The notes below the pieces were generated by a model. The model ran no database searches and was not told where the DNA came from. It saw nothing but the letters and a program-made list of their open reading frames with translations. From Escherichia coli (GTDB taxonomy: Bacteria > Pseudomonadota > Gammaproteobacteria > Enterobacterales > Enterobacteriaceae), in the NCBI RefSeq assembly GCF_013122565.1, contig NZ_CP053258.1: a DNA stretch of 64,000 bases; one strand, 5' to 3'. Positions 9,113 through 64,000 of this stretch are shown in pieces (positions within the stretch are counted from its first letter, which is position 1; every line of letters starts with the position of its first letter). A program made the position numbers and the translations under genes.

Positions 9113-9135
9113 GGGGGAATACCGTTTCCCCCTTT
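9113..9135 (+). terminator. Intrinsic terminator after toxin ORF copy 2
   Basis: Same hairpin as 8504-8526. Confidence 0.5.
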
Positions 9136-9573: not shown

Positions 9574-9632
9574 CGCTTTCCCGTTGGTAAGTCGTGTTGA
9601 AAACGGGCAGTCGCATCACTGCCCGTTGTGTT

Positions 9633-13280: not shown

Positions 13281-13289
13281 GCTCTTTCC

Positions 13290-17048: not shown

Positions 17049-17060
17049 TGCAAATTCCTT

Positions 17061-20897: not shown

Positions 20898-20909
20898 TGC
20901 AAATTCCTT

Positions 20910-22350
20910 TTAATCAAACAGTGATTCAATATCGTTAATCAGCTCGCTGGCAGTGATGTCGTCGAGCACGGAGAAGGGATAAACCGATTTGCGCGGCGTC
21001 AGTTTGTACAACTGAATGTGCTCAATTTTTTGGTTATCGCTGATTTCGGTGACGGGCAATCCAACACAGAAGCCGGGTGTCACACTCAGTTCGACGTAGC
21101 CATCATCCACAGCTTTATAAAATGAGTAATAGCCGCCACCATCCAGAACATCGCCCCGTTGCCAGCCTTTATTCATCAGCCCGGCGACGCGCCCACTCGC
21201 TGCCTGGCGACCAGCCCAGCGCTGCAAATCGTTGCTGTTTTTTTCTGAATCAGAGAGCTGAGACCAGGGGCGATCAAGTTGACGGAACGGTGGCAGGAGT
21301 TCGTAGTCAGAGAACAGTTGGGCAAATTCAGCAGCCTGTGGGGCCGGGATTTCCAGCACATGCGGGATACCGATACAGCCCTGCGCAAGGGTTAACGGGT
21401 TATCGTGACCGTCGCTAAAACTGCCATCCTCCGCCACGCGAAAACAGCAAATAAGCTGATTATCAGCGTCATAAATGCCCCACATCAGACGTTGGGTGAT
21501 ATGACGAACCAGGGGATGCTCAACCAGAAACAGACGGAACTGTTCTGCAGTCCAGCGGCGACGCTGACACATGGCGGCTTCCAGACGCGAAATCTGTTGT
21601 GCAGCTACCGTGCGGACATCTTTTTTCAACAACTTGTAGCGACTTACCGCTTCCTCAGCCAGAGTTTCATCATCGCTTTTGTTCGGTTTGGGCAGGTCTT
21701 TCAGACGGTTGCCGGAAGCATCGCGCACAAACGGTTTTAAGGATTCATCAAAGCTGACGGTGAACTGGCGTGGGCCGAAATCCAGCAGCAGCGAACCGTT
21801 ATCATCCAGACCGAGATCGGGCGCTAACCGGTCTTCCAGCTCTGCGACAGTGAGCTGGCGGCTTTCGGCAATCTGGGCGATTTTAACTCTTGCCTGATCC
21901 TGCAAGGCTTTAAATTTTAGCTTTTGCGCAATGCCGTTAAGCTGCATAAGAGCGATATCGCTGCCGATAGCAGCAAGAATATCCAGCCCGACAGTGGCGC
22001 GTTTATGCTGGGATTCCCCTGGCCAGGCGCGGATGAGCGGGGTGAGTTTGCGGGCGGTGTCATCGTTACCCAGAATCCCCAGCGCGGTAAATGCCCAGTT
22101 ATCTTTAGCGGAGCCACTGGCAGATTCCCAACTGAGGAAGAGATCCCAGGCGAAATCAGCAAGAGACTGCGGAGTACAGGCCTCGATTACCTGTGTAATC
22201 CCGGGGTAAAGGGTGGCTTCACGGGGGAAAGAGAGCATGGTGCACAAGTTCAGGATAGCTGAGTCAGGAAGTGCCTTGCCGTTACTGTGCAGAAGCGGGC
22301 GATGCCATACTTCTGGCGAACACCAGGTGGGGAGTTTGGCGATTTTCTGC
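20910..22350. repeat. ~1.45-kb near-identical block shared by paralogs C and B (copy 2)
   Basis: See 17061..18500. Confidence 0.8.
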
Positions 22351-24650: not shown

Positions 24651-24662
24651 TGCTAAATCCTT

Positions 24663-39494: not shown

Positions 39495-39605
39495 TATCAT
39501 CGCAACCAAACGACTCGGGGTGCCCTTCTGCGTGAAGGCTGAGAAATACCCGTATCACCTGATCTGGATAATGCCAGCGTAGGGAAGTCACGGACCACCA
39601 GGTCA
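39495..39605 (+). promoter_or_regulatory. TPP (thiamine pyrophosphate) riboswitch in thiM leader
   Basis: ggggtgcccttctgcgtgaaggctgagaaatacccgtatcacctgatctggataatgccagcgtagggaa matches the classic thiM thi-box aptamer, immediately upstream of thiM SD. Confidence 0.8.
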
Positions 39606-46372: not shown

Positions 46373-47425
46373 ATGACAGATATTGCGCAGTTGCTTGGCA
46401 AAGACGCCGACAACCTTTTACAGCACCGTTGTATGACTATTCCTTCTGACCAGCTTTATCTCCCCGGACATGACTACGTAGACCGCGTGATGATTGACAA
46501 TAATCGCCCGCCAGCGGTGTTACGTAATATGCAGACGTTGTACAACACCGGGCGTCTGGCTGGCACAGGATATCTTTCTATTCTGCCGGTTGACCAGGGC
46601 GTGGAGCACTCTGCGGGCGCTTCATTTGCCGCGAACCCACTCTACTTTGACCCGAAAAACATTGTTGAACTGGCGATTGAAGCGGGCTGTAACTGTGTGG
46701 CATCAACCTACGGCGTGCTGGCTTCGGTATCACGACGTTATGCACACCGTATTCCTTTCCTCGTCAAACTCAACCATAACGAAACACTAAGCTACCCCAA
46801 CACCTACGACCAAACACTGTATGCCAGCGTAGAACAGGCTTTTAATATGGGCGCGGTGGCGGTTGGTGCGACTATCTATTTTGGCTCGGAAGAGTCACGT
46901 CGCCAGATTGAAGAAATTTCTGCGGTTTTTGAACGTGCGCACGAGCTGGGCATGGTGACAGTGCTGTGGGCCTATTTGCGTAACTCCGCCTTTAAGAAAG
47001 ATGGCGTTGATTACCATGTTTCCGCCGACCTGACTGGTCAGGCGAACCATCTGGCGGCAACCATAGGTGCAGATATCGTCAAACAAAAAATGGCGGAAAA
47101 TAACGGCGGCTATAAAGCGATTAATTACGGCTATACCGACGATCGCGTCTACAGCAAACTGACCAGTGAAAACCCCATCGACCTGGTGCGTTACCAGTTA
47201 GCCAACTGCTATATGGGGCGTGCCGGGCTTATCAACTCAGGTGGAGCTGCAGGCGGAGAAACTGACCTTAGTGATGCGGTGCGTACTGCGGTAATTAATA
47301 AACGCGCAGGCGGTATGGGGCTGATTCTGGGGCGGAAAGCATTTAAGAAATCGATGGCTGACGGCGTGAAACTGATTAACGCCGTGCAGGACGTTTATCT
47401 CGATAACAAAGTCACTATTGCCTGA
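46373..47425 (+). CDS. fbaB: Class I fructose-bisphosphate aldolase (350 aa)
   Basis: ORF trimmed to [16 protein letters not shown] with GGGAG SD. Confidence 0.9.
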
Positions 47426-47433
47426 TGTGAAAT

Positions 47434-47459
47434 CATCCTCTCCCATGAGGGAGAGGATG
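47434..47459. terminator. Hairpin between convergent fbaB and rbtT-like gene
   Basis: catcctctccc-atga-gggagaggatg inverted repeat. Confidence 0.4.
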
Positions 47460-47481
47460 AGTGCCTGATGCGTTTCGTTTT

Positions 47482-48756
47482 TCAGGAGATATTCAATGCT
47501 TTCTCAGTCACTGGCGCAGAACTGAATCCTGGCTGCTCAACGCGAATGAATGCGCAAAGGACAAAGGCCAATAGATACAATGCTGTATAGGCAATGACCA
47601 CACCGATAGTGCTAAACCACGGTAATAACACCACGGCAATTGCCGGAGCCAGGAAGTTAGACATACCCGCAGAGAGGTTGTAAACCGAGATTGCAGCACC
47701 TTTGTGTTTTGGTTCCAGTGCCGGGAAGACAGCGGCCATCGGCACAAATGCAGCAACAAAAGTTCCCAGAGCAATCGCCGGAATCATTGCCATCCAGTAG
47801 TTGTGACCAAAGTATTGCGGCATGTAGTAAAACGCTAAACTTGATGCTGCCATCCCGAGGCAACCAAACCAGCGAATAACACGCATCCAGCCCATTTTTT
47901 CTGCCACAATCCCCCAAAAAATATTAGAGAAAATAGTGGTAAAGAAAAATGCCGCCCAGACCTGCAACCATTCAGAGGTGGTGAATCCCAGTTCATCCAC
48001 AAACATCATTGGCATAATGACCGCAAAACCGAATAACGATAAGGTATTTATAATGCGCACAATACTGGAGAGAAAAATATTGCGGTTGGTATAAAGTAAA
48101 GTTACTGCCCGACTTAATTCTGCAAACTTCTCACGGGGAGTTAAATTATGCATATGTCCAGGCGTTTTAACATGACGCAAGGAGATCATGGCAATGACAC
48201 CGCCAGCAAAGCAGAACGCCAGTGCCAGCCATAAGGTTCCCATTTCACCCATAATCGGTATCGTAAAACTGGGAATATAACTGCCAGCAACACCGATCCC
48301 TACTGAATATACCGCCCAGTACCAACCCAGAGCAGCACTGGAATTTTCGCTACGCACGTTATGAATAATAACGACGATAAATGAGTAGAGAAATAGCGGA
48401 TACGCTAAACCACGAATCCCGTAAAACAGCAGGATTAACCCATAGTTTGCCTGTCCTAATCCAAAGACCAGAAACAGAACATGGAATACGCACCATAGGA
48501 CAAAACCAATCAGCATGGTTTTTTGCGGCGTGATGATTTCCGCTACCACCCCAGAAACCCAGGCGGAAAGGGCAGCCGCCAGGCCGTAGAGCGTAAAGGC
48601 AAAAGAGGCTTCCGCAGGTGTGAAGCCTAACGATTTAATATAGTGCGATAAGAATGCGAGTTCGAAACCATCACCAGTCATAAATACTGCGATGGCGATA
48701 TATCCCCATATCAGATGCAGTGGCAAACCCAACCACTGTTTATTATTTCTGGACAT
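47482..48756 (-). CDS. rbtT: MFS polyol transporter (ribitol transporter-like)
   Basis: ~80% identical paralog of the dalT-like gene at 56485..57762; last gene of rbtD-rbtK-rbtT string. Confidence 0.7.
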   Translation of the reverse strand: MSRNNKQWLGLPLHLIWGYIAIAVFMTGDGFELAFLSHYIKSLGFTPAEASFAFTLYGLAAALSAWVSGVVAEIITPQKTMLIGFVLWCVFHVLFLVFGLGQANYGLILLFYGIRGLAYPLFLYSFIVVIIHNVRSENSSAALGWYWAVYSVGIGVAGSYIPSFTIPIMGEMGTLWLALAFCFAGGVIAMISLRHVKTPGHMHNLTPREKFAELSRAVTLLYTNRNIFLSSIVRIINTLSLFGFAVIMPMMFVDELGFTTSEWLQVWAAFFFTTIFSNIFWGIVAEKMGWMRVIRWFGCLGMAASSLAFYYMPQYFGHNYWMAMIPAIALGTFVAAFVPMAAVFPALEPKHKGAAISVYNLSAGMSNFLAPAIAVVLLPWFSTIGVVIAYTALYLLAFVLCAFIRVEQPGFSSAPVTEKALNIS

Positions 48757-48857
48757 ATAAACCTCGTTTTTAGGGTGCAGATGAATGCACTCCGGGATAT
48801 TACCGGAGTGAGTCGTTATTATTGATTGCCTGAAAACAGCGTCAGGCGGCTGGTTAA

Positions 48858-50462
48858 TTAGTCTCTGAGTAATTTTGCAGTATGCTGCAACTGCTTATAG
48901 GCCTCATATCGACGATGATGAAGAGATTGATAGCGTTCTTGCGGATAATAATATTTATCCACATGGGTGAATTGTTGCATCGCTTCGCCAACAGAAGGTG
49001 CAATATTTCCGGCGACAGCACCAAGAATGGCCGAGCCTAATAAAACCGGTTCGCAGCATTGCGTCGTAATGACCGGAATACCGCAAGTATCTGCCAGAAC
49101 TTGTCGTACCAGTGGATGCTGCCCGGCACCGCCGCTAATAACGATATTTTTACTCACTACTCCCTGCGCTGTTTGAGCGTCGAGAATTTGGCGCAGACCA
49201 TAACCAATTCCGCATAATCCAGCGATATACAAGGCGAGTAAATTATCCAGATCTCGCTCCATACCCAGGCCACAAATTACCGCTCTGGCATGAGGATCTG
49301 CGAAGGGGGCGCGATTTCCGAGAAATTCCGGCACCACGTGTAGCCCTTTCGCCAGGGCGACAGCATCTGATGGTTGCGCCGTTTTTTCGAGGATTCGATC
49401 AGCAAGCCAGACGGGGAGGGGCTGATTCACACGTTGTGCCATTTCACGAGCTTCTTCAACAGCCGGATGGAAATCCAGTAGCTGGTCAATAGCTGCTCCC
49501 GCAGCACTTTGCCCGCCTTCAACTAACCACAGACCTGGAACCATCGCACTGTAATACGGCCCCCAGACACCTGGTACAAACGAGGGAGAAGTTGTAGATG
49601 CCATGGTGCATGAAGAAGTGCCGAAAACATACGCGAGATTGTTCAGCGCTCCACCTTCTACGCCAACCGTACCGATGCCACCAGCGTGAGCATCAATTAA
49701 CCCTACAGCGACAGGTGTGCCGGGGAGTAATCCCATCTCTGCCGCGGCTTGTGCTGTTAAACCATTTCCACAAGGTGTTCCGGGAGAAACAATATGATGA
49801 CCAATGCGAATAAAATCTTCATCCGCTAACTCTGCAAGGCCAATGGTGCGGAAATAATCTGGATCCCAGCGATTTTCATGCGCCAGCCACGTCCATTTAC
49901 AGGTAACAGTGCATACTGAACGCGCTAAATCACCGGTAGCCCGCCAGGTCAGAAAATCGGCCAGATCGAAAAATTGTCCGGCCCGTTCGTAGATCTCTGG
50001 CATATTTTCTTTCAGCCAGAGAATTTTCGGTGTTTCCATTTCAGGCGAAATTTTACCACCGACGTAGTTCAGCACCGGATGGTGAGTGGCATTGATTCGC
50101 TCTGCTTGTTCGGTGGCGCGGTGATCCATCCACACAATGATATTTTGCTTTGCATCTCCTTCCGGGCTGACAGGCAATGGATCACCGTTTTTATCCAGTA
50201 CCACCAGAGAACAGGTGGCATCAAAACCGATGCCTGCCACACTTTGTGCACAAACGTCTGCCAGAGTGAGCGCATTACGAATACATGAACAGACCGCCTG
50301 CCAGATCTCCTGGCTGGACTGTTCCACGCGGCTTCCGCTGCGCCGTGTAGTTGTGATTTTTTCTGTGGCATGGGATAGCAGAGATCCGTTGAGATCAAAA
50401 ATCCCGGCGCGGACACTGCCTGATCCCACATCAACACCAATAACGGTTTTGGTTATTGTCAT
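48858..50462 (-). CDS. rbtK: FGGY-family ribulokinase (D-ribulokinase-like)
   Basis: N-terminal VIGVDVGSGSVRAG sugar-kinase motif; start chosen at MTITKT (ORF extends to 50486). Confidence 0.75.
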   Translation of the reverse strand: MTITKTVIGVDVGSGSVRAGIFDLNGSLLSHATEKITTTRRSGSRVEQSSQEIWQAVCSCIRNALTLADVCAQSVAGIGFDATCSLVVLDKNGDPLPVSPEGDAKQNIIVWMDHRATEQAERINATHHPVLNYVGGKISPEMETPKILWLKENMPEIYERAGQFFDLADFLTWRATGDLARSVCTVTCKWTWLAHENRWDPDYFRTIGLAELADEDFIRIGHHIVSPGTPCGNGLTAQAAAEMGLLPGTPVAVGLIDAHAGGIGTVGVEGGALNNLAYVFGTSSCTMASTTSPSFVPGVWGPYYSAMVPGLWLVEGGQSAAGAAIDQLLDFHPAVEEAREMAQRVNQPLPVWLADRILEKTAQPSDAVALAKGLHVVPEFLGNRAPFADPHARAVICGLGMERDLDNLLALYIAGLCGIGYGLRQILDAQTAQGVVSKNIVISGGAGQHPLVRQVLADTCGIPVITTQCCEPVLLGSAILGAVAGNIAPSVGEAMQQFTHVDKYYYPQERYQSLHHRRYEAYKQLQHTAKLLRD

Positions 50463-50472
50463 GATTGCGCCC

Positions 50473-51225
50473 TTACAGATCGACACTGCCAGGCAGGATC
50501 ACTAAATCTCGCACGGTGACATTTTTCGAGCGGGTCACCATAAACAATACTGATTCCGCCACTTCAATCGGTTGCATCAGGCTACCATTTGCCAGGGCTT
50601 CTTCCATTTTGGCTTTTGGCCAGTCATCAAGCAGGGCAGTGACTACTGGTCCTGGCAGCACCGCACCCACACGCACGCCATATTGAGAAACCTGGCGGCG
50701 GGTAGTGTGTACGAATGCCTGAACGGCAAATTTGGACGCGGTGTAGATCGGTTCCCAGATAACCGGAACGACGCCCGCGATGGAACTGGTAAAAATTATA
50801 TCGCCCGACCTCTGCGCAATCATATGCGGCAGGACTGCACGGACACAGCGAAACGCCGCATTTATATTCAGATTTAACACACGATCCCAGACATCTGGAT
50901 CACCTTCAGCCACTGGGCCGCCAATATAAGCGCCTGCATTGGCATGAAAAATATCCAGCCCACCCGCCAGTTCGATAATGTCCGCCAGCATGTTATCGAC
51001 TTGCTGATTATTGAAGAGATCGAGTTGCAGCGCGTACGCGTTTTCGCCTAACTCAGCGACAATCTTGTGCAGTTTGTCGCCTTCCCGGTCAATCAATACT
51101 ACCTTTGCTCCTGCATCGAGCAGCGTTTTTGCACATTGCAGGCCAATACCTGACGCAGCGCCAGTGATAGCTGCAACTTTGCCATTAAGGGGAGTATTCA
51201 TAGAGGGCACAGAGTGATTCATCAT
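50473..51225 (-). CDS. rbtD: Ribitol 2-dehydrogenase (short-chain dehydrogenase/reductase)
   Basis: SDR Rossmann motif GAASGIG; sequence closely resembles Klebsiella RbtD as I recall it. Confidence 0.8.
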
Positions 51226-51383
51226 ATAATCCTTTTACCAGGGCGAATTTATAGTCTCTGTTTGCTTGCACGCACTGAACGGGAATTTAGCTGCCGTGTG
51301 AAGCAAACTGCTCAATCGATGAAGCAGATCTAGCACTTGCTTAAATTCTCAGCAAGAGACATTCAAAATGAAGAGGCAAATTT

Positions 51384-52415
51384 GTGACAAGCGTTGAGAA
51401 AACGAAGAAAACGACCATTTACGACCTGGCAGAATTAACCGGCGTTTCTGCCAGTGCGGTAAGCGCTATTTTGAATGGCAACTGGAAAAAGCGACGCATC
51501 AGCGCAAAGCTGGCTGAGAAGGTCACCCGTATTGCGGAAGAGCAGGGATATGCCATTAATCGGCAGGCAAGTTTACTGCGCAGTAAAAAATCCAACGTTA
51601 TTGGCATGATTGTGCCGAAATATGACAACCGATACTTTGGATCGATTGCCGAAAAATTTGAAGAGATGGCGCGTGCCAGAGGATTACTGCCAATCATCAC
51701 CTGTACGCGGCGACAGCCAGAACTGGAAATTGAGGCTGCTCGCGCCATGCTCTCCTGGCAGGTGGATTGGGTCATTGCTACCGGAGCGACTCAACCGGAT
51801 AAAATAGCCCAAATGTGCCAGCAAGCGGGCGTACCGACACTGAATCTGGATCTGCCGGGAACACTGGCGCCGTCGATCATTTCTGATAACTATATGGGGG
51901 CGAAATTATTGACGGAAAGAATTTTAGCCAACAGCCAGAAACGCTATGGCAAGCTGGCACCTTTGACTTTTGTCGGTGGACGTATAAGCGATAACAATAC
52001 TGCTGAACGTTTACGTGGTTTTGTCGATGCCCATCAGGCTTTGGGGATAACCGTACCGGATGAACATAAACTGGTTACCGGCTACTCTTCTGCTCGCGTA
52101 GAGGGATTACTGAAAGAGGTCTTCCAAAGCTCTGCAGTATCGCTTCACGGGTTATTCGTCAACTCGACAATCTCTCTTGAAGGGGTGGTTCGCTGGCTGG
52201 CGCAAACCGGGCAGACGGGAGCCAATCAACCGCCAATGGGGTGTTTTGACTGGGATCCTTTTGTTTCTCTGCTCGGGCACGATATCGATATGGTTCGTCA
52301 GGATGTACCCGCCATGCTCGAAAAAGTGTTTGAAATTGTGGATTCTGGCGATACCACCCTGCGTCGCATTGAGATACCGCCACAACTCATTCCGAGCCTG
52401 AATGTTGTCAGCTGA
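51384..52415 (+). CDS. LacI-family transcriptional regulator, divergent from rbtD (putative ribitol operon regulator)
   Basis: N-terminal HTH (TIYDLAELTGVSASAVSAILNG), periplasmic-binding-fold C-terminus; GTG start at 51384. Confidence 0.7.
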   Translation: MTSVEKTKKTTIYDLAELTGVSASAVSAILNGNWKKRRISAKLAEKVTRIAEEQGYAINRQASLLRSKKSNVIGMIVPKYDNRYFGSIAEKFEEMARARGLLPIITCTRRQPELEIEAARAMLSWQVDWVIATGATQPDKIAQMCQQAGVPTLNLDLPGTLAPSIISDNYMGAKLLTERILANSQKRYGKLAPLTFVGGRISDNNTAERLRGFVDAHQALGITVPDEHKLVTGYSSARVEGLLKEVFQSSAVSLHGLFVNSTISLEGVVRWLAQTGQTGANQPPMGCFDWDPFVSLLGHDIDMVRQDVPAMLEKVFEIVDSGDTTLRRIEIPPQLIPSLNVVS

Positions 52416-52417
52416 GA

Positions 52418-53359
52418 TTAACGTGTCAGCAACCAGCGTGCGGTGTGTTCATCGGTGACCAGACCGTTGATCCACCCACCTTTTAATGCTGCGAGGATCG
52501 CCGGACGTTTATCCTCACCACAGGCAGCTGCGATACGTGGGCAGTTGCTTTCGCGGATATCATGGCTAGTGATCATCTGGTTGATCTGGCTTTCCACAAC
52601 ATTGCCTTCAGCATCAATAAAGCGTCCGAGGATTTCACCAACGCCTCCGCGTGCTGTTAACTCTTCCAGTTGCTGCTCATCAATAAAGCCATCTTTGAAG
52701 ATAGGGCTTTGACGACCTAAAGCACCAATACCCACGAAAATAACATCAGAGTCACGCGCTACGGTAGAGACGTTGCGGAACAATCGATTGGTTGACCACA
52801 TTTGGTACTCTTCGCGGGACTGAGCATAGCGTGGAGCTGGCCACTGGTAATATTTTCCCTGAATTTTTCTCGCCAAAAGCAGCGGTACGTCGTCGTAATA
52901 GTTACATTGCCCGTGTTCATTCATGGCGCTAATCAGCGCCACACAGCGGGTATTCTGACTATCAAAATCGATACGTTTAATGGTTTTCTTCAACGTTAAG
53001 CCAGAACCAATACCAACGATGGTCGGTTTGTCACCCTGTAAGTAACGCGCCATCAGTTGATAACAGCCAAATGTCACGCTGTCGAGCGTACTTTCAATAC
53101 TGTAAACCGGCATAATATTGCAGTCGGTTAATTGGTACTTTTCCTTTAACAGTTGGGCATAATCGAGACAGTTGGCAACCGGATGATGCAATCCAATCGA
53201 CACAATCCCTTCGTCTTTCGCTGCTGCTATCAGGCGTTGAACCACTGGCCGTGAAGTACCTAACTGACTTGCGATTTCACTCTGATTAAGCCCGGCAATG
53301 TAGTACATCCATGCCGCCCGTACTTTTTGATCGAGCCTGATGTCATCTTCTTTGTTCAC
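52418..53359 (-). CDS. SorC/DeoR-type sugar-binding transcriptional regulator, divergent from dalD (putative arabinitol operon repressor)
   Basis: N-terminal HTH (LNQSEIASQLGTSRPVVQRLI) plus sugar-binding domain. Confidence 0.7.
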   Translation of the reverse strand: MNKEDDIRLDQKVRAAWMYYIAGLNQSEIASQLGTSRPVVQRLIAAAKDEGIVSIGLHHPVANCLDYAQLLKEKYQLTDCNIMPVYSIESTLDSVTFGCYQLMARYLQGDKPTIVGIGSGLTLKKTIKRIDFDSQNTRCVALISAMNEHGQCNYYDDVPLLLARKIQGKYYQWPAPRYAQSREEYQMWSTNRLFRNVSTVARDSDVIFVGIGALGRQSPIFKDGFIDEQQLEELTARGGVGEILGRFIDAEGNVVESQINQMITSHDIRESNCPRIAAACGEDKRPAILAALKGGWINGLVTDEHTARWLLTR

Positions 53360-53571
53360 GTTTCCCTACCTCAAAAGTGGCGTGCGGAATCGTGAAAATC
53401 CCGCAACTGATTAGCGTCATTTTGGCCATAGCTTTACCGCGAGGCAAGTTTATTGCTTTGATTTGGTCATTTGTAATTTTTTTGGTCAATTGTTCTTTTG
53501 TGATCTAACGCTCTTAATTAACTCAAATGTTCGATTACAGTTCAGCCATAACGTCAATGGAGAACGAAACA

Positions 53572-54939
53572 ATGAACGAACAATTTACATGGCTGCACAT
53601 CGGGTTAGGTTCTTTTCATCGCGCACATCAGGCGTGGTATCTACACCGTTTGCAGGTGATGGGCGATAAACGCTGGAGCATTGCTGCGGGCAATATTCGT
53701 AATGATGCTGAACATGTCGTACAGGCACTCAGTGCACAGAAAGGTCGCTATGTGCTGGAAACCGTCAGCCCGGAAGGGGTAAGCGAATATGAAGAGATCA
53801 CCTCAATTCAGAAGTTGATACCGTGGCAGGCAGATTTACAACCGCTGATTGCTGAAGGGGCAGATCCGAAGACAAAAGTGATTGCTTTCACCGTCACCGA
53901 AGGCGGGTACTACCTGAATACCAGTCACAAACTGGAAGTTAACAATCCTGATTTAGCGGCAGATCTTAAAGGGGGATGCAAAACAATTTACGGTGTTATT
54001 ACCCGTATCCTCGAAGCGCGTATGGCAAATAACGCCGGACCACTAACCCTGCTGAATTGCGATAACGTGCGCCATAATGGTGAACGTTTCCATGATGGCC
54101 TGGTTGAGTTTCTCCAGCTAACTGGCAAACAGGATGTCATCGACTGGCTGAGTACAAATACCACTTGCCCGAATACCATGGTTGACCGCATTACGCCTCG
54201 TCCGGCAGCAGAACTTCCGGCACGGATCAAGGCTCAAACGGGTATTGCCGATAAAGCGCCGGTAATGGGCGAAACCTTTATCCAGTGGGTCGTGGAAGAT
54301 AATTTCCGTGATGTCCGTCCGGCACTGGAGAAGGTCGGTGTCGAACTGGTGGCGTCGGTAATCCCCTATGAAGAGGCGAAGATTCGCATTCTTAACTCTT
54401 CACACAGTTGCATCGCCTGGGCAGGTACGTTAATCGGTCAAAAATATATCCACGAAAGCACAATGACCGATTTTATCTATCAGATTGCCGACCGCTACGT
54501 GACGGAAGATGTCATTCCTTGCCTGGGCGATAACGGTATCGATTTGCCAACCTACCGTGATGTTGTACTCAAGCGTTTTACCAATCCACATATTCAGGAC
54601 ACCAACCAACGCGTCGCTGCGGATGGTTTCTCGAAAATTCCGGCGATGATTGCCCCCACACTGCGAGAGTGCTACCAGCGAGGCGTTCGCCCGAATGCCA
54701 CCGCCATGTTACCTGCACTGTTTTACGTATTCATGGAGCAGTGGCATCACGGCAAACTGCCCTATGAATATCAGGATGGCATCCTTGATGCACCAGCTGT
54801 CCATGCAATGTTCCAGTCTGCCGATCCCGTCGCTGTTTATGCCAGTGATAAAGCGCTGTTTGGCGATTTAACCGAACGTGAAGATTTTGCCGCGTTGTTG
54901 CGCGAAAAAATCGCTGACGTCTACGCGTTAATTAACTAA
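53572..54939 (+). CDS. dalD: D-arabinitol 4-dehydrogenase (mannitol dehydrogenase family)
   Basis: N-terminus [23 protein letters not shown] typical of the mannitol/arabinitol dehydrogenase family; TGGAGAA SD. Confidence 0.8.
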
Positions 54940-54952
54940 CCAGGAGGCGGTT

Positions 54953-56416
54953 ATGTATCTGGGTATCGATCTGGGCACATCGGAAGTTAAGGCGCTGGTC
55001 ATTGATGAAAACAATGAAATTGTTGCCACCCATAGTGCGCCGCTGACCATTCAGCGGCCCCATCCACACTGGTCAGAACAATCGCCGCAAGCCTGGTGGG
55101 AAGCGACGGAATATTTAATGTCGACCCTGCGGGAAAAATGCGGTCACCACTGGCAGGCGATCAAAGCCATTGGCCTTTCTGGTCAAATGCATGGTGCCGT
55201 CCTGTTGGATGAAAAAGGAGAGGCGATTCGTCCGGCGATTTTATGGAACGACACCCGCAGTGCGCAGGAGTGTGCGGAGCTGGAAGAGATCGCACCAGAG
55301 TTGCATCAGGTAGCGGGAAACCTGGCGATGCCTGGATTTACCGCCCCCAAATTGCTATGGGTACGGCGCCATGAGCCGCAGCATTTTGCGCGCATTTCCA
55401 CCGTTTTACTGCCGAAAGACTATTTGCGTTTCAAAATGACCGGCCAAAAGATTTCCGATATGTCGGATTCTGCTGGCACGTTGTGGCTCGACGTGGAAAA
55501 ACGCGACTGGTCAGATTCGTTGCTGGAAAAATGTGGCCTGACACGGGCGAATATGCCGGAACTGGTGGAAGGTTGTGACGTTTCTGCCACTCTTTCCCCT
55601 GAAGTTGCCAGCCGTTGGGGGCTGACATCTTCGGTTGTAGTTGCTGGTGGCGGTGGCGATAACGCCGTGAGCGCAATTGGTGTGGGGGCCGTTTCTCCCG
55701 GAGATGCGTTTATTTCTTTGGGAACTTCCGGGGTGTTGTTTGTGGTGACAGATGCCTATCGTCCTGCGCCGCAATCAGCAGTCCATGCTTTCTGTCACGT
55801 ACTACCGAATTTATGGCACCAGATGAGTGTAATGCTCAGTGCCGCCAGTTGTCTGCAATGGTTCTGCCGTCTGGTGGGGGTAACGGAAACAGAGTTACTG
55901 GAAGAGATTACCCAACTTTCTGATGCAGACAAAGCCAGTGCACCGATGTTCCTCCCGTATCTTTCTGGTGAACGTACGCCACATAACGATCCTCATGCCC
56001 GGGGATTGTTCTGGGGGCTGACACACTCCAGTCAGCGTGCGCTAATGGGATATGCAGTGCTGGAAGGCGTCAGCTTTGGTATTGCCGATGGGCTGCGAGT
56101 CCTGCAAGAAAGCGGTACGGCAATTGAGCAATGCTCGCTGGTAGGTGGGGGGGCGAGAAGTCCATTCTGGGCGCAGTTACTGGCCGATATTCTCGATATG
56201 CCAGTGGTGACGCATAAAGGCGGTGAAACGGGTGGGGCGCTGGGAGCCGCGCGTCTGGCCTGTCTTGCTGCGGGAAAACCACTGGCGGCAGTGTGTGAAA
56301 AACCTGAAATCTTCAAAACCTGGCGCAGCGATCCTGAACGTCATAAGGCGCTGATGCAACGATATCAGCAGTTTACTGCGCTGTATCACAACGACCTGAA
56401 CTATCGCAATCAATAA
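54953..56416 (+). CDS. dalK: Xylulokinase (FGGY family)
   Basis: MYLGIDLGTSEVKALV N-terminus; CAGGAGG SD. Confidence 0.8.
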   Translation: MYLGIDLGTSEVKALVIDENNEIVATHSAPLTIQRPHPHWSEQSPQAWWEATEYLMSTLREKCGHHWQAIKAIGLSGQMHGAVLLDEKGEAIRPAILWNDTRSAQECAELEEIAPELHQVAGNLAMPGFTAPKLLWVRRHEPQHFARISTVLLPKDYLRFKMTGQKISDMSDSAGTLWLDVEKRDWSDSLLEKCGLTRANMPELVEGCDVSATLSPEVASRWGLTSSVVVAGGGGDNAVSAIGVGAVSPGDAFISLGTSGVLFVVTDAYRPAPQSAVHAFCHVLPNLWHQMSVMLSAASCLQWFCRLVGVTETELLEEITQLSDADKASAPMFLPYLSGERTPHNDPHARGLFWGLTHSSQRALMGYAVLEGVSFGIADGLRVLQESGTAIEQCSLVGGGARSPFWAQLLADILDMPVVTHKGGETGGALGAARLACLAAGKPLAAVCEKPEIFKTWRSDPERHKALMQRYQQFTALYHNDLNYRNQ

Positions 56417-56484
56417 CATCTGTCACAAATGCCCTCCGGTGTTTGCACCGGAGCGGCGTTTTGTATCCTACAAACGAGGTCACT

Positions 56485-57762
56485 ATGTCGTTAACAAATA
56501 AACAATGGCTGGGATTACCCTTAAATCTGGTGTGGGGATATATTGCCATTGCCATCTTTATGACCGGAGACGGTTTTGAACTGGCATTCCTGTCGCATTA
56601 CATTAAAGCACTGGGTTTCACGCCTGCAGAAGCCTCCTTTGCCTTTACGCTCTATGGCCTGGCGGCAGCGCTTTCCGCCTGGGTTTCCGGCGTAGTTGCC
56701 GAAATCATTACGCCACAAAAAACCATGTTTATCGGCTTCGTGCTGTGGTGCGTATTTCACGTGCTGTTTCTTGTCTTTGGTCTGGGGCAGGCGAACTATG
56801 GGTTAATCCTGCTGTTTTATGGTATTCGTGGCCTGGCCTATCCGCTGTTCCTCTACGCCTTTATTGTGGCGATTGTCCATAACGTACGCAGTGACAGCAC
56901 CAGTGCTGCGCTGGGCTGGTTCTGGGCAGTTTACTCTATTGGTATCGGCGTATTCGGCAGCTACATCCCCAGTTTTACCATTCCACTTATTGGCGAAATG
57001 GGAACATTATGGCTGGCGCTGGCCTTCTGTGGGGTTGGTGGCGCTGTTGCGTTAATTTCTATGCGCAAAGTAGAAACACCACGCCATATGCAAAACCTCA
57101 CCACAAAAGAGAAGTTTAGCGAACTGGGCCGTGCGGTGACTTTGCTTTATACCAACCGCAATATTTTGCTTTCCAGTATTGTTCGCATTATCAACACCTT
57201 ATCTTTATTCGGATTCGCCGTAATTATGCCGATGATGTTTGTTGATGAGCTGGGCTTTACCACCTCTGAGTGGTTGCAGGTCTGGGCAGTCTTCTTCTTT
57301 ACCACCATCTTCTCTAACGTATTCTGGGGCGTGCTGGCAGAGAAAATGGGCTGGATGAAAGTTGTTCGCTGGTTTGGTTGCGTGGGAATGGCGCTTTCAA
57401 GCCTGGCGTTCTACTACATGCCGCAACATTTCGGTCATAACTTTGCTATGGCGCTGATACCTGCGGTGGCACTGGGGATCTTTGTTGCTGCATTCGTACC
57501 GATGGCAGCCGTTTTCCCGGCACTGGAACCGAAACATAAAGGAGCAGCTATTTCGGTTTATAACCTTTCCGCCGGGTTGTCCAACTTCCTTGCTCCGGCA
57601 ATCGCCGTGGTACTTCTGCCTTATTTCAGTACTATTGGTGTGGTTATCGCTTACACCACCCTGTATGTGATAGCGTTTATTATTTGCCCGTTTATTCGCG
57701 TCGAACAACCGGGATTCTCAAATCAGCAAGTGTGTGAAGGGAAGACCGCCACCATTTCCTGA
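56485..57762 (+). CDS. dalT: MFS polyol transporter (arabinitol transporter-like)
   Basis: Start at MSLTNKQWLGLPL; paralog of 47482..48756. Confidence 0.75.
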   Translation: MSLTNKQWLGLPLNLVWGYIAIAIFMTGDGFELAFLSHYIKALGFTPAEASFAFTLYGLAAALSAWVSGVVAEIITPQKTMFIGFVLWCVFHVLFLVFGLGQANYGLILLFYGIRGLAYPLFLYAFIVAIVHNVRSDSTSAALGWFWAVYSIGIGVFGSYIPSFTIPLIGEMGTLWLALAFCGVGGAVALISMRKVETPRHMQNLTTKEKFSELGRAVTLLYTNRNILLSSIVRIINTLSLFGFAVIMPMMFVDELGFTTSEWLQVWAVFFFTTIFSNVFWGVLAEKMGWMKVVRWFGCVGMALSSLAFYYMPQHFGHNFAMALIPAVALGIFVAAFVPMAAVFPALEPKHKGAAISVYNLSAGLSNFLAPAIAVVLLPYFSTIGVVIAYTTLYVIAFIICPFIRVEQPGFSNQQVCEGKTATIS

Positions 57763-57806
57763 TGACGACAAGCCTGGTGTGGTGCCAGGCTTTATTGCGA
57801 GGAACA

Positions 57807-58460
57807 ATGTTTAATTGTAAAGCAGTCATTTTTGATATGGACGGCGTCATCATTGATTCGGAAGGGTTATGGCGTGAGGCACAAAAGGGAGCACTGGCAA
57901 GGTGGGGCGCATGTGTCAGTGAAGAAGAGTGTATAAGACTGACTAAAGGTAAAAGGCTGGATGAGATTGCCCAAACCTGGTGTGAATATTGTCATTTACA
58001 CATTGAACCCGCACTGTTGGAAAGTGAGATTCGCCGCCTGATCACTACGTTGATTGCCGGGACGGGCGAAGCGATGCCAGGCGTTCAGGACGTGTTATCT
58101 TTTTTGCGCCGGAGTGGCTATCAACTGGCGCTGGCAACCTCTTCATCTTACCAGGTGATCGATGCTGTACTGACAAAACTCAATATTCAGCACTATTTTT
58201 CGGTGATTTGTAGTGCTGATGACGAAAAGCATGGGAAACCACATCCGGCAGTTTATCTTTCTGCACTGCGAGAATTGCAACTGTCTGCTGCAGATTGTTT
58301 GGTTATAGAGGACAGCGTGAGTGGTTTTCAGGCAGCACAGGCGGCAGGAATAAACACCATTGTGGTATCAGAAGATGCCCAACAAACCTGCTTTAATGCG
58401 GCGAGTGCAAGATATTTATCGATGAATGAATTACTGGCAGCGTTAGCCGTAGCTGCGTAA
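57807..58460 (+). CDS. HAD-superfamily hydrolase (phosphatase/beta-phosphoglucomutase-like)
   Basis: AVIFDMDGVIIDS motif at N-terminus; start chosen at MFNCK (ORF begins 57762). Confidence 0.6.
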   Translation: MFNCKAVIFDMDGVIIDSEGLWREAQKGALARWGACVSEEECIRLTKGKRLDEIAQTWCEYCHLHIEPALLESEIRRLITTLIAGTGEAMPGVQDVLSFLRRSGYQLALATSSSYQVIDAVLTKLNIQHYFSVICSADDEKHGKPHPAVYLSALRELQLSAADCLVIEDSVSGFQAAQAAGINTIVVSEDAQQTCFNAASARYLSMNELLAALAVAA

Positions 58461-58533
58461 CAAAAAAGGGTGAGCGCAGAAGATCCCAGGGATGATGCCG
58501 GTCTGCTAATCCTGCTTCTGCGCTTGCTTTTAT

Positions 58534-59433
58534 TTAACGTAAAAGCGGGCAATCTGGTGGCAGACGGCAACGCAACGCTGCCGGAAGTATTTCAATATGA
58601 AAATTTTGCCCACTCAACGGTTCGCCATCAAGATTAAAGGTGATGTCGTGTGGTGCCTGAATATCAAACCACGACGAAGCGCCTTCGATAATATTCGGGT
58701 TATCTTCGTCAGATTTTAAGGTTGATACGAGAGCTGGAAGAATTTCATCGCCGGTAAAAATGCGCAGTTGCAGCAAGCCATCGTTAATTAACGCGTTCGG
58801 ACACAATTGCTGACCGCCACCGGCCTGACGCCCGTTACCAATACCAATGACCAGGGCGTCACCTTGCCAGTGAAAGTTTTCACCGTGGATTTCACAACGG
58901 TCCGGTTGCAGAGTATCCATGCGCATTAAGCCATGAATGATGTAAGAGACGCCACCCAGCGCGGCTTTTAATTTTTCCGGCGTTTCTGTGGTAATACGCG
59001 TCCCAAATCCGCCTGTCGCCATATTAATAAAACAGGTTTGTTTGTTGACCTGCGCCATATCTATCGCAATGGCGTTACCGGCAATTGCCAGTTTCAGCGC
59101 CTTATCCAGTGCCTCAGGAATCCCTACACTGGTGGCAAAATCATTGGCGGTTCCTAATGGCAAAATTCCCAGCGCGGGTATGTCATCCCCCTCACACTGA
59201 ATCAACGCCGTAGAAACTTCATTAATGGTGCCATCGCCACCACCGGCAATCACCGTTGCGACGCCCAACTTCCGGGCCTCCTCTACATATCGTGCGGCAT
59301 CGCCTTTCTCCCAGGTAACCCGCACATGGATCGTCATTCCTTCCTCACGCAACAGCATAATTGCTTCGCGCAAGGGTAGATTGTCAGTACTTTTGCCATT
59401 AAGAATCAGTAAGCTGGCGGGAAATTCTGCCAT
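58534..59433 (-). CDS. yegS: Lipid kinase YegS (299 aa)
   Basis: DAG-kinase-like GGDGT motif; synteny. Confidence 0.9.
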
Positions 59434-60322: not shown

Positions 60323-60349
60323 AAAAAATAAGCCCGTGTAAGGGAGATT
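60323..60349. mobile_element. P2-type 27-bp attachment core (attL of prophage)
   Basis: AAAAAATAAGCCCGTGTAAGGGAGATT, which I recall as the phage P2 att core, located about 80 bp beyond the 3' end of int. Confidence 0.7.
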
Positions 60350-60428
60350 TAGGGTGTCACCAGTAGGGGCTTTCAACGGTACAATGCGGGTTTGAGCGGC
60401 ATAAATTACCACTGAAAGCCCTTAAACG

Positions 60429-61442
60429 TTACTCTACTGTGGACACTGTGTGGACACTCTCGGCCTCAGTACCACCTCTTAGCGGATTAAGAGAAATGGC
60501 GTCCTGAAGGTACTCTGGCGCAAAATGAGCGTAAACCATAGTTTGCTCAATCCGCGTGTGACCTAGTATCCGTTGTAGCGTGATAATACTTCCTCCATTA
60601 ATCATGAAATGAGTGGCAAAGCTGTGCCTTAGTGCATGTGTGGCTTGCCCCATTGGCAAATCCGGTTTTATTGCTTTCATTGTTCGTCTGAAGCGAGGGT
60701 AATCAGCATCAGGGAATAAAAAACCTCGTTTGTTATCCGCGATCATTTTGGCAACAGCCTCTGAGATCGGGACGGTGCGTGGTTTGTTTGTTTTCGTTTT
60801 AACAAACGTGACGCGGTTATGGATGATATTTTCTGCTTTCAAACGAGCTGCTTCTCCCCAACGTGCTCCAGTACTCAGGCAAAGAATCGCAATCTTTTTG
60901 TTGTCGCCGTCAAGAGCAGCAAGCAGTAAGGCAATTTCTTCCTGCGTGAGATAGCCTGTGTCTGGTTTTTCCTCCTTAAGCCTTTTTGTCCCTCTGATAG
61001 GGTGCTCACCAAAGAATAACTCCGCTTCAATCAGGGCTGTAAACATGCCGCTAATACATGTTAAATCACGATTGATACTCGAAGGTTTAATACCCTGACT
61101 TCTTCGGGTGGCGCAGTACTGGCTGATAAGCGATTTCGTAATTTGAAATGCGCATGGGTCATTCGTTATTTTTGTGAAGATTTCAATTTTTCCAAGATTA
61201 GATTTCCCATGCTCTTCGTGTTTACCCTTTAAATCCCACCAGATCTGTGTCAGCTCCGACAGACGTCGCTTGTCTGTTGGTTTTGATAGCCATTCTTTAT
61301 TGTGGTGGTTGTACAACGTGTATTTCTCGAAAGCGACAGCTTCGCTTTTCTTATCAAACTTCCTACGGATGCGTTTTCCATTACGTCCAGTAGGGCGGAT
61401 GTCCACTTCATATCGACCATCATCGAGTTTTTTGATTGCCAT
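60429..61442 (-). CDS. int: P2-type tyrosine integrase (337 aa)
   Basis: Tyrosine recombinase catalytic residues (R...HxLRHSFATH...Y near C-terminus). Confidence 0.9.
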   Translation of the reverse strand: MAIKKLDDGRYEVDIRPTGRNGKRIRRKFDKKSEAVAFEKYTLYNHHNKEWLSKPTDKRRLSELTQIWWDLKGKHEEHGKSNLGKIEIFTKITNDPCAFQITKSLISQYCATRRSQGIKPSSINRDLTCISGMFTALIEAELFFGEHPIRGTKRLKEEKPDTGYLTQEEIALLLAALDGDNKKIAILCLSTGARWGEAARLKAENIIHNRVTFVKTKTNKPRTVPISEAVAKMIADNKRGFLFPDADYPRFRRTMKAIKPDLPMGQATHALRHSFATHFMINGGSIITLQRILGHTRIEQTMVYAHFAPEYLQDAISLNPLRGGTEAESVHTVSTVE

Positions 61443-61557
61443 CAGAAAACCCTCCGAGTGGTGTGTTTTTTTGCGACTACTAATCGCTTTTTTCGTGGTG
61501 GCTGAAATTTAGCCACCAATAGTAGGCACTTGTGATGAATATATTCACGATGAATTG

Positions 61558-61857
61558 TTAACCAGTCTTTTGACCGGAGTGGGGCGACGTTGTTTCGTTT
61601 TGCCCAAAGTGTGCGAGAGCGGGCGCAATTTGCCCGGACTCAGGAGCGATCTGATTGGTCATGAACCATAAAGTGTATTTGGTGAATTGTGGGGTCTGCA
61701 GGATGTTCATCATGACATCTGTTGGAGGTGTTGAACGACCACTTTCATAGTAACTCAGCGTGCCATACGGAACCCCTGTTAAATCAGCAAGTTGTTGTCT
61801 GCTCAAATACTCTGATTTTCGCATTAAGACTATCTTCTCGCTTATCGTGTTTGACAT
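61558..61857 (-). CDS. P2-type immunity repressor C (99 aa)
   Basis: HTH (LSRQQLADLTGVPYGTLSYYE); divergent from cox. Confidence 0.85.
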   Translation of the reverse strand: MSNTISEKIVLMRKSEYLSRQQLADLTGVPYGTLSYYESGRSTPPTDVMMNILQTPQFTKYTLWFMTNQIAPESGQIAPALAHFGQNETTSPHSGQKTG

Positions 61858-61971
61858 GGTGTTTAGATCTCAATAGTATTTGGTTTAGATGTAGATTGTT
61901 TAGTGCTTGGATGTGGGCACTAAAAGGCATTATAAGACATTAAACGCAATTCATGAGGGCTAGAGGACGAC

Positions 61972-62247
61972 ATGAGCAAGCAAGTAACACTCATGACTGA
62001 TGCGATTCCTTATCAGGAGTTCGCAAAACTAATAGGAAAATCGACAGGAGCGGTTCGTCGGATGATCGATAAAGGAAAGCTGCCTGTAATTGATATGACC
62101 GATCCACAATCAGCTTCAGGTCGTGCAGGTGAATATTGGGTATACCTTCCGGCATGGAATAACGGACTAAAACTGGCTTATGAAAGCCGCCCTAAAGAGA
62201 TTCGTGACGGCTGGTTGATGTGGTTAGGTCTCGGTGAACCACGTTAA
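61972..62247 (+). CDS. cox: P2-type Cox (excisionase/transcriptional switch, 91 aa)
   Basis: Size, position and divergent orientation to C. Confidence 0.8.
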   Translation: MSKQVTLMTDAIPYQEFAKLIGKSTGAVRRMIDKGKLPVIDMTDPQSASGRAGEYWVYLPAWNNGLKLAYESRPKEIRDGWLMWLGLGEPR

Positions 62248-62428
62248 GGAGAACCGTATGAATGAGCCTCGTTGTATTGCTCAGTTACTGCGTAACGAAA
62301 GCCCCAGGGCGATTGACTTCACCATCACCCACGGTAAGGGGCGTAAGGGAATCATTATCCGCACCAAAAAACAGAGTCCGTTAAAAAAGGCTCTGACCTT
62401 TCTGAAAAGCCGGAGGGTATGGAAATGA
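62234..62428 (+). CDS. Small early-region hypothetical protein (P2 orf78 position)
   Basis: ORF overlapping cox stop; position only. Confidence 0.45.
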   Translation: MNHVKENRMNEPRCIAQLLRNESPRAIDFTITHGKGRKGIIIRTKKQSPLKKALTFLKSRRVWK

Positions 62429-62925
62429 CAGTGATGACGCTCAATCTCGTTGAAAAACAGCCAGCAGCTATGCGCCGGATAATTGGTAAGCATCTTGCCG
62501 TTCCTCGCTGGCAGGATACATGTGATTATTATAATCAGATGATGGAGCGCGAACGGCTAACAGTTTGCTTTCATGCGCAGTTAAAACAGCGTCACGCAAC
62601 GATGCGTTTTGAAGAAATGAACGACGTCGAACGTGAACGACTGGTATGTGCAATTGATGAATTGCGTGGGGCATTCTCAAAACGTCGTCAGGTCGGTGCA
62701 AGTGAGTATGCATATATTAGTTTTTTAACAGTCAGTCAGCGTCGTACTTTATTTATGCATGCCGGATTGACTGAAAAAGAATTTAACCAGCCATACTGGC
62801 GAATTAATGAAGAGTCATGTTACTGGCGTGATGCTTTATTCCGTGCATTACGTGAATTATTCAGCCTGTTTGAGTATGCACCGACAATTCTGACGTCGGT
62901 AAAACCAGAGCAATATCTGCATTAA
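62419..62925 (+). CDS. P2 B-like replication (helicase-loader) protein
   Basis: 168-aa ORF in B position after cox. Confidence 0.65.
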   Translation: MEMTVMTLNLVEKQPAAMRRIIGKHLAVPRWQDTCDYYNQMMERERLTVCFHAQLKQRHATMRFEEMNDVERERLVCAIDELRGAFSKRRQVGASEYAYISFLTVSQRRTLFMHAGLTEKEFNQPYWRINEESCYWRDALFRALRELFSLFEYAPTILTSVKPEQYLH

Positions 62926-62988
62926 GTAATTAACCAGAGTTTTTAACGCACTTAATCGTGCGGGGCTTCTTTTTGCCTGGAGAAAGTT

Positions 62989-63213
62989 ATGCATACAGTT
63001 TCTGAAAATCAGTGCGGTAAATACGCATTACTGCTGCAACAGGCCAGAACCGAAGCACAGGCCGACGCTGCGACGCGCTTTTCTTCTCATCTTGATGCCA
63101 TGATTCGCCACATCACAAAGGCGGAGTTATCCCGCGTGGAGATAGTCGAGCTGCTCAGTCAGGAGTCGGAAAAATTTCACAATATCGGATTGTCTCGCGG
63201 GGAGGTGCTTTGA
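62989..63213 (+). CDS. Early-region hypothetical protein (P2 orf80 position)
   Basis: Position and size. Confidence 0.5.
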
Positions 63214-63515
63214 TGTCCTGTTCTCGTTCAGTTGTATTACTGAATAACGCCTTAAAAATCGCCGTTATGAAAAATGGCGATTTGTCTCTTATTCAACTTG
63301 GTCTTGATAAAGAAAAACGCGAAATAACTGAGTCTGTTATCGCGATTTATCAGAACGAATTAAACCTCCTGTCTGATGTGGTCAATTTGCTTGTTAAACG
63401 CGCTGTGTTTCACAAGCAAATCTCCTCCGTGGATGAACTGACGAAATTAACGACAGAAATCGCCAGCTATTGCGCTGATGAATTTAAAAACCTTAACAAC
63501 AAAAGGAACTGGTAA
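63210..63515 (+). CDS. Early-region hypothetical protein (P2 orf81 position)
   Basis: Position and size; ATGA overlap with previous ORF. Confidence 0.5.
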
Positions 63516-63739
63516 TGCCGGACAACGTAGATTTTATTCAGGAACAACAGGCTGAATTACTGGAGCGCCAGATTAACGCGGCAAGGGTAAAACATTGCGG
63601 TGCTTCTGCGATGGTTTGCGAAGAGTGTGACGCGCCAATACCTGCTGCCCGTCGTGCGGCTTATCCGTCAGCCACGCGTTGTGTTTCCTGTCAGTCAGTT
63701 TTTGAAGCAAAAAACAAACATTACCGGAGAACGGCATGA
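63515..63739 (+). CDS. DksA/TraR-type C4 zinc-finger protein (P2 orf82 position)
   Basis: CEECDAPIP...RCVSCQ four-cysteine motif. Confidence 0.6.
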   Translation: MPDNVDFIQEQQAELLERQINAARVKHCGASAMVCEECDAPIPAARRAAYPSATRCVSCQSVFEAKNKHYRRTA

Positions 63740-64000
63740 GTATTCGTATTGAAATTGGCGAACGTTATGTCGTTACCAGTGACAGCTTTCAGTTTATTCT
63801 CCACGAGAAAAAGAGAGCTGAAAGCGGTAAAAACGCCGGTCAGGAATGGCTGGCGGTGGTTGGTTATTACCCGAAATTAAGCCAGCTCGTTTCCGGCCTG
63901 ATGCATCACGATATTCTGACCGGAAGCGCAAAGTCTTTTGCTGATTTAAACGCGCAGGTTGAGCAACTCAGCAAGCGTTGTTCAGAGGCTTTTGGCTCAT
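63736..64000 (+). CDS. Early-region hypothetical protein (P2 orf83 position), 3' end outside window
   Basis: ATG at 63736 overlapping previous stop; open to window end. Confidence 0.45.
   Translation, partial: MSIRIEIGERYVVTSDSFQFILHEKKRAESGKNAGQEWLAVVGYYPKLSQLVSGLMHHDILTGSAKSFADLNAQVEQLSKRCSEAFGS

Follow-up and report, generated by a model that had tools for sequence, protein, structure and literature searches.

A chromosomal ribitol and D-arabinitol utilisation cassette of the Escherichia coli C type between fbaB and yegS

We analysed a stretch of 64,000 nucleotides of Escherichia coli DNA (contig NZ_CP053258.1, hereafter the window) and found that positions 47427-58533 very probably represent the cassette for pentitol utilisation known from the chromosome of E. 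coli C, organised as two mirror-image, divergently regulated operons for ribitol (rbt) and D-arabinitol (dal). The cassette lies between fbaB (46373-47425, plus strand; class I fructose-bisphosphate aldolase, NF006706, 811 bits) and yegS (58534-59433, minus strand; lipid kinase, as named in the RefSeq annotation of matching genomes), where an initial annotation of the window had also placed it. It comprises nine genes, and the cluster is apparently intact and ordinary, as judged from its reading frames.

Gene content and identity of the cassette

The rbt operon runs on the minus strand and consists of rbtT (47482-48756), predicted to encode a ribitol MFS permease of the polyol permease family (TIGR00897 RbtT/DalT/CsbX, 513.5 bits; cut-off 375), rbtK (48858-50462), for a D-ribulokinase of the FGGY pentulose kinase type (TIGR01315, 919 bits; cut-off 409), and rbtD (50473-51222), for a ribitol 2-dehydrogenase of the SDR family (PF00106, 195 bits). 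In the list of open reading frames (ORFs), rbtK follows directly downstream of rbtD after a gap of 10 nt. Two regulatory genes, both with GTG starts, occupy the centre: rbtR on the plus strand (51384-52415; PF00356 and PF00532) and dalR on the minus strand (52418-53359; PF04198 Sugar-bind, 175 bits). The dal operon on the plus strand contains dalD (53572-54939; D-arabinitol 4-dehydrogenase, NF043014 equivalog, 755.7 bits; cut-off 600), dalK (54953-56416; D-xylulokinase, TIGR01312 xylulokinase, 640 bits; cut-off 380) and dalT (56485-57762; D-arabinitol MFS permease, TIGR00897, 513.9 bits; cut-off 375). The ninth gene, at 57807-58460 on the plus strand, codes for a homologue of HAD-IA family sugar phosphatases (HxpB model, 173.9 bits). 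All nine ORFs are full length, and the start codons given here are those used by RefSeq in matching genomes. The initial annotation had read the order as rbtT-rbtK-rbtD, a LacI-type regulator, a SorC-type regulator and dalD-dalK-dalT; the ORFs were recovered at exactly these coordinates and strands, and the domain models agree with both regulator types. Its interval, 47482-57762, covered eight of the genes correctly and left out the HAD gene.

The closest known counterpart is E. coli C. Strain NCTC122 carries the same genes in the same order at the same fbaB-yegS position with 99.7% DNA identity; its genes too are enclosed by inverted repeats, and its locus lacks gat. The nine window ORFs share 99-100% identity with the proteins of E. 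coli C. The window nevertheless comes from another strain: its fbaB is a unique allele of mosaic appearance, its flanks show 1-2% divergence, and downstream of yegR there is a P2-like prophage. Names attached elsewhere to identical proteins agree with the assignment, as the protein identical to RbtD is called "ribitol 2-dehydrogenase" in some sources and the one identical to DalT (Q8GQN4) is named "D-arabitol membrane transporter" by one.

A Klebsiella pneumoniae contig was reached through its RbtD homologue, by a protein search followed by contig look-up; a scan of a genome collection with DalR returned five loci, none of them from Klebsiella. The contig reads HAD-dalT-(dalK)-dalD-dalR-rbtR-rbtD-rbtK-rbtT-fbaB-thiD-thiM. 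The locus of K. pneumoniae and K. aerogenes thus has the nine-gene order of the window, lies next to and convergent with fbaB, and uses the same regulator families. It differs in protein sequence (61-87% identity for K. pneumoniae), in its saturated synonymous divergence (dS), and in that its far side is flanked by genes other than yegS. Identities to K. pneumoniae are 86% for RbtD (88% to K. aerogenes; full length and syntenic), 72.5% for RbtK, 87% for RbtT, 77% for RbtR, 82% for DalR, 85% for DalD, 84% for DalK, 86% for DalT and 61% for the HAD protein. The initial annotation had linked the cluster to Klebsiella and to E. coli lineages using the two pentitols, and proposed RbtD, RbtK, DalD and DalK for comparison; the values for these four, the shared arrangement of the eight rbt/dal genes (72-87% identity) and the match to NCTC122 all support that link.

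By analogy with the Klebsiella and E. coli C systems, RbtT would import ribitol, RbtD would convert it with NAD+ to D-ribulose, and RbtK would yield D-ribulose-5-phosphate; DalT would import D-arabinitol, DalD would produce D-xylulose, and DalK would form D-xylulose-5-phosphate. Both phosphates would then feed the pentose-phosphate pathway. LacI-type RbtR and SorC-type DalR would each repress their divergent operon until the inducer is present. The strain is accordingly predicted to ferment adonitol (ribitol) and D-arabitol, and not galactitol (dulcitol). Fermentation of adonitol, D-arabitol and dulcitol is a classical set of diagnostic traits, for which E. coli C is the usual example. The region of E. 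coli C, named rtl/atl (rbt/dal), was reportedly described by Reiner in 1975 and by Link and Reiner in 1982, and the Hartley group is said to have worked on the dal/rbt locus of K. pneumoniae or K. aerogenes as well, in the 1980s.

The locus is therefore well known, having been described between 1975 and 1998 (Reiner and Link for E. coli C; Heuel et al. for Klebsiella). E. coli C is recorded as an E. coli strain using ribitol and D-arabitol (PMC6805351), and for the homologous Klebsiella rbt/dal locus (Heuel et al. 1998) the connection with the catabolism of ribitol and D-arabinitol is made in PMC5156309 and PMC12307932. The relation of rbt/dal to gat is the subject of Link & Reiner 1983, "Genotypic exclusion", a work represented here by its citations in PMC6805351 and PMC2806823. 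A ribitol/arabinitol cluster adjoining gat has been reported in O55:H7 CB9615 (PMC2806823). The ninth gene, exact boundaries, third haplotype, ancestral position and candidate operators presented here are refinements of this known system. The main value of the finding lies in correct annotation, and the current understanding of polyol catabolism is unchanged by it.

Boundaries, spacers and control regions

Homology to gat-carrying E. coli ends at 47426, one base past the fbaB stop codon, and restarts at 58534, the stop codon of yegS, which leaves a variable segment of 11,107 bp (47427-58533). Each junction is marked by a hairpin. Between the convergent genes fbaB and rbtT, the first cassette-specific sequence past the fbaB stop codon is a hairpin with a 12-bp stem (47433-47460; fold -23.1 kcal/mol, z -3.6), which is likely to act as a bidirectional terminator. 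On the other side, the HAD gene and yegS converge on a long hairpin (58462-58535, inverted repeat I10; fold -29.6 kcal/mol, z -3.4), which forms the last cassette-specific sequence. A terminator scan did not flag the junction hairpins because they have no T-run, and folding was used instead. In gat genomes, the spacers on the fbaB and yegS sides hold repetitive extragenic palindrome (REP)-like elements in place of these hairpins, and the junction intergenic regions of the two kinds of genome are unrelated by eye. The window has no gat genes between fbaB and yegS; standard blastn found neither rbtT remnants in gat genomes nor gat remnants in the window. An Rfam search of the whole window placed no RNA family inside the cassette.

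The two operons also mirror each other in the spacer that separates kinase from permease. The rbtK-rbtT spacer (48757-48857, minus strand) contains a GC-rich hairpin at 48788-48810 (z -2.7), possibly an intra-operon attenuator or mRNA stabiliser, and the dalK-dalT spacer (56417-56484, plus strand) holds a matching GC-rich hairpin (fold -26.4 kcal/mol, z -3.6). Both may tune expression of the permeases.

Conserved motifs were found in both divergent control regions. The one between rbtD and rbtR (51223-51383) contains an 18-bp CG-centred pseudo-palindrome, TGCTCAATCGATGAAGCA, at 51309-51326, in which 14 of 18 positions are symmetric. This block is unique in the window and is invariant in six taxa in an alignment of the control region, while the adjacent columns vary. 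The control region between dalR and dalD (53360-53571) shows blocks conserved in seven taxa, including the direct repeats TGGTCATTTGT (53464-53474) and TGGTCAATTGT (53483-53493) and the motif TTTTGTGATCT (53496-53506), which resembles a CRP half-site.

Three haplotypes at the fbaB-yegS site

The site was compared across 5,426 complete E. coli genomes, with the window allele counted at an identity of at least 99%. This allele (type A) is present in 308 genomes (5.7%), in which a segment matches the window cassette at 99.6-99.7% identity; strain NCTC122 (E. coli C) and a derivative of WG5 are among them, and no plasmid copy was found. The K-12 type (type C) carries gat only; gat DNA was detected in 5,112 genomes and was missing from 314. 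Like the pentitol genes, the galactitol operon gatYZABCD-gatR of K-12 is a polyol catabolic cassette in the fbaB-yegS interval; it differs in encoding an unrelated hexitol pathway based on the phosphotransferase system, has no sequence in common with the pentitol cassette, and is bracketed by REP-like elements.

A further 27 genomes (type B), including O55:H7 (TB182A, CB9615) and O127:H6 (the E2348/69 lineage), carry gat and a diverged pentitol allele side by side, in the order fbaB-gatYZABCD-gatR-rbtK-rbtD-rbtR-dalR-dalD-dalK-dalT-HAD-yegS. They have no rbtT, and gat stands exactly in its place. Type B resembles the window in the HAD-yegS right junction, the dalR-dalDKT-HAD organisation and the control-region motifs. 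Its DNA is only ~82% identical to that of type A, with dS of 0.93-1.33, against 0.06-0.12 for the flanking yegT, yegU and yegS and 0.20 for yegV. At the protein level, six of the seven shared rbt/dal proteins are 92-94% identical between A and B, and RbtK is 85% identical; for most proteins the two alleles are each other's closest relatives, ahead of Citrobacter, Enterobacter, Leclercia and Klebsiella, with DalT equally close to C. koseri. The suggestion in the initial annotation of alternative cassettes at one site fits type A against gat-only genomes, where the fbaB-yegS interval is a clean textbook example of catabolic modules that alternate at a single place in the chromosome, and is too simple for the 27 genomes with both. 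There are three haplotypes here rather than two.

The pentitol allele of type B, which extends between gatR and yegS over positions 11974-21562 of the O55:H7 locus and 6252-14574 of the O127:H6 locus, also raises the question of whether the window strain could have a cryptic or decaying cluster, given the state of the rbt half in these lineages. In O55:H7 TB182A, rbtD has an internal stop, and in O127:H6 frameshifts and deletions affect rbtK, rbtD and rbtR; moreover, in one type A genome an IS1-associated rearrangement has removed the greater part of the cassette. In the window, by contrast, all nine ORFs are full length and match the E. coli C proteins nearly perfectly, and the conserved control-region motifs are intact. 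Decay of the window cluster is therefore very unlikely.

Two observations concern these degraded loci themselves. In type B, decay affects the rbt genes and leaves both the dal half and the HAD gene intact, which suggests that selection keeps D-arabinitol use, and not ribitol use, in the O55:H7 and O127:H6 pathogen lineages. In the type A strain PSS-08-2, two copies of IS1 have caused an inversion of the fbaB-rcnB segment and the loss of most of the cassette, of which a 3' fragment of rbtT is left beside fbaB and the HAD gene beside yegS.

Inverted repeat formed by the permease genes

A long inverted repeat (I1) brackets most of the cassette. Its left arm (47524-48779) lies on rbtT and its right arm (56462-57717) on dalT; over 1256 nt the arms are 77% identical (as complements), with a longest exact run of 26 nt. 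The initial annotation had recognised the two transporters as close paralogues, which stands; its estimate of ~80% identity by eye becomes 85% for the proteins when measured. Of the 297 differences between the arms, 213 fall at third codon positions. This bias and the short exact runs point to purifying selection on both permeases and make the arms poor substrates for homologous inversion. The genes rbtT and dalT are old paralogues under purifying selection, and the long inverted repeat that they form marks both ends of the cassette.

The first sighting of these repeats gave rise to the idea of a composite transposon or mobile genomic island that had inserted into the gat site, with the 1.3-kb inverted repeats as its ends. 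A long inverted repeat around catabolic genes, the patchy distribution in E. coli (5.7% of genomes) and the very low diversity of the cassette would all suit such an element. However, the arms are functional paralogous permease genes that are only 77% identical and differ mainly at third codon positions, rather than insertion sequences (IS) encoding a transposase, and neither family models, Pfam nor RefSeq annotation revealed a transposase, integrase or IS inside the cassette. No target-site duplication or flanking direct repeat was found at the cassette edges. Nor is the composition anomalous in the comparison with the flanks that the initial annotation had suggested: GC content in 1-kb windows is 0.44-0.54 and GC content at third codon positions 0.43-0.55, as in the flanks. 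The HAD gene is positioned outside the repeat and yet travels with the unit, and the same fbaB site is used in six taxa, five of them other genera or species. We therefore rejected the transposon or island explanation, which is extremely unlikely given the lack of mobility genes, the repeats made of permease genes, the missing target duplication and a site conserved across genera; the cassette is not a mobile element.

Points weighing against the assignment

Several points count against the assignment to the E. coli C type pentitol system or limit parts of it. The predicted substrates are drawn from orthology to the genes of Klebsiella and E. coli C. No specific curated family model covers RbtD or RbtR, and the HAD protein, although nearest to the hexitol phosphatase HxpB (YfbT), scores 173.9 bits against an equivalog cut-off of 191. 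A scan for the sigma-70 consensus found no strong promoter in the rbt or dal control region. The regulatory sites are guesses from conservation: TGCTCAATCGATGAAGCA is a candidate RbtR operator, TGGTCATTTGT and TGGTCAATTGT are proposed DalR sites, and TTTTGTGATCT is a proposed CRP half-site. Finally, mutual exclusion of type A and gat fits the totals (308 + 5,112 of 5,426), from which, rather than from a per-genome intersection, it was derived.

That the genes instead serve another polyol or pentose, such as xylitol, sorbitol or L-arabinitol, with the ribitol and D-arabinitol labels being wrong, is hardly credible: SDR, mannitol-dehydrogenase-family and FGGY enzymes do belong to promiscuous families and RbtD has no specific curated model, but DalD passes its equivalog model with a margin (755.7 versus 600), the proteins share 72-88% identity and full synteny with a Klebsiella rbt/dal locus that the literature ties to ribitol and D-arabinitol catabolism, and the DNA is 99.7% identical to that of E. 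coli C, a user of ribitol and D-arabitol (PMC6805351).

HAD phosphatase homologue

The HAD gene is annotated by RefSeq in every matching genome. Its place after dalT is the same in E. fergusonii, K. pneumoniae, Leclercia (UBA3338) and E. coli O55:H7 and O127:H6, and C. koseri has it in fragments; it is a member of the conserved pentitol unit. HxpB itself was rejected as its identity, the score being under the cut-off, in favour of a HAD-IA paralogue. The closest solved structure is 1te2, a 2-deoxyglucose-6-P phosphatase. In the comparison with E. fergusonii, nonsynonymous divergence (dN) is far below dS in eight cassette genes; for the HAD gene, dN is ~0.26 of dS. Scangos and Reiner are said to have found, in the late 1970s, a toxic effect of non-substrate polyols on strains that express the pentitol pathways constitutively. 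Because of this reported toxicity, our guess is that the HAD protein might clear mis-phosphorylated or excess sugar or polyol phosphates, an idea that we offer as a lead only.

Evolutionary history of the site

The pentitol cluster recurs beside fbaB well outside E. coli. E. fergusonii has the full nine genes in the same position and order with the same flanks from yegW to yegS; its cassette DNA is ~97% identical to the window and its DalT protein 100% identical. C. koseri retains a partial or degraded version (yegS-HAD-dalT...rbtD...fbaB-yegT), Leclercia has pentitol clusters beside fbaB with and without rbtT, and in E. asburiae the dal half alone stands beside fbaB. Given this recurrence in E. 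fergusonii, K. pneumoniae, C. koseri, Leclercia and E. asburiae, the pentitol genes are the conserved occupant and gat the addition; the pentitol cluster thus looks like the older occupant of the fbaB-yegS site and gat like a newcomer. The initial annotation had the right site in speaking of the gat position of K-12, but the framing has to be turned around: gat occupies the pentitol position, and the pentitol cluster is a conserved neighbour of fbaB across Enterobacteriaceae.

Divergence from the two nearest relatives differs between cassette and flanks. Between the window and E. coli C, dS is 0.00-0.03 in the cassette and 0.06-0.085 in yegT/U/V; between the window and E. fergusonii, it is 0.07-0.17 in the cassette, 0.17-0.24 in yegT/U/V and 0.81 in yegS. 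With cassette dS below flank dS both times, the A allele is younger than its surroundings in both comparisons. These values suggest that recombination, breaking near the cassette, spread the A allele from a relative of E. fergusonii. Judging from the population data, the cassette probably passes from one E. coli lineage to another through homologous recombination in its flanks.

Two neighbouring genes show irregularities of their own. At 85% DNA identity to the E. fergusonii gene, yegS (58534-59433) stands apart from adjacent genes with dS of ~0.2, a hint that it was replaced in the E. coli or the E. fergusonii lineage, possibly together with the arrival of gat. On the other side, fbaB of the window reaches at most 94.4% DNA identity to fbaB of any of 5,420 E. 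coli genomes, while the protein is 99% identical. Its single-nucleotide differences are clustered at 46603-46858 and 47131-47314 and fall nearly all on third codon positions, with dS of 0.29 against 0.06-0.085 in neighbouring genes, so that fbaB looks like a mosaic of short imported recombination patches beside the cassette junction.

A single account that joins these strands is possible, and we put it forward tentatively, as a whole that is somewhat less probable than an even chance would imply. It would hold that fbaB-yegS is an old trans-species polymorphic site at which the pentitol cluster and its conserved HAD phosphatase are ancestral; that the two E. coli pentitol alleles have diverged like those of different genera (dS ~1); that one allele invariably occurs together with gat, which took the rbtT place, and has a decaying rbt half; that the window allele, close to that of E. 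fergusonii, spread recently among E. coli lineages by recombination with break points at the edges of the cassette, a process that might account for the mosaic fbaB as well; and that the HAD gene serves as a safety valve against toxic sugar or polyol phosphates.

Other features of the window

Just downstream of yegR lies a P2-like prophage (~60323-64000; integrase at 60429-61442) that is 98.9% identical to phage P2 and 99.9% identical to Peduovirus P24C9. E. fergusonii CP057463 has the end of a 99.3%-identical prophage directly beside yegS. In E. coli C this region holds the P2 attachment site locI, and in K-12 a P2 remnant (ogrK/yegZ).

A tandem array of five genes, each coding for 1215-1278 aa, fills positions 9633-28469 on the minus strand, with metG on one side and the yeh genes on the other. 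All five products contain a DUF4132 domain, and the four nearer metG have a WGR domain as well (MolR/YehI family). Coverage of the 19.6-kb array stays below 80% in all 5,426 complete E. coli genomes; the highest value is 68%, at 95.5% identity, and most genomes give fragmented alignments of 88-92% identity over ~37-58%. The region looks like a hypervariable array of paralogues. The window further contains two copies of the OrzO-P antitoxin RNA (RF02083; 8072-8145 and 8681-8754, both on the minus strand; 89-90 bits), which implies a putative duplicated zor-orz type I toxin-antitoxin locus, and, as expected for the region, a thiamine pyrophosphate (TPP) riboswitch at 39506-39602 on the plus strand, upstream of thiM.

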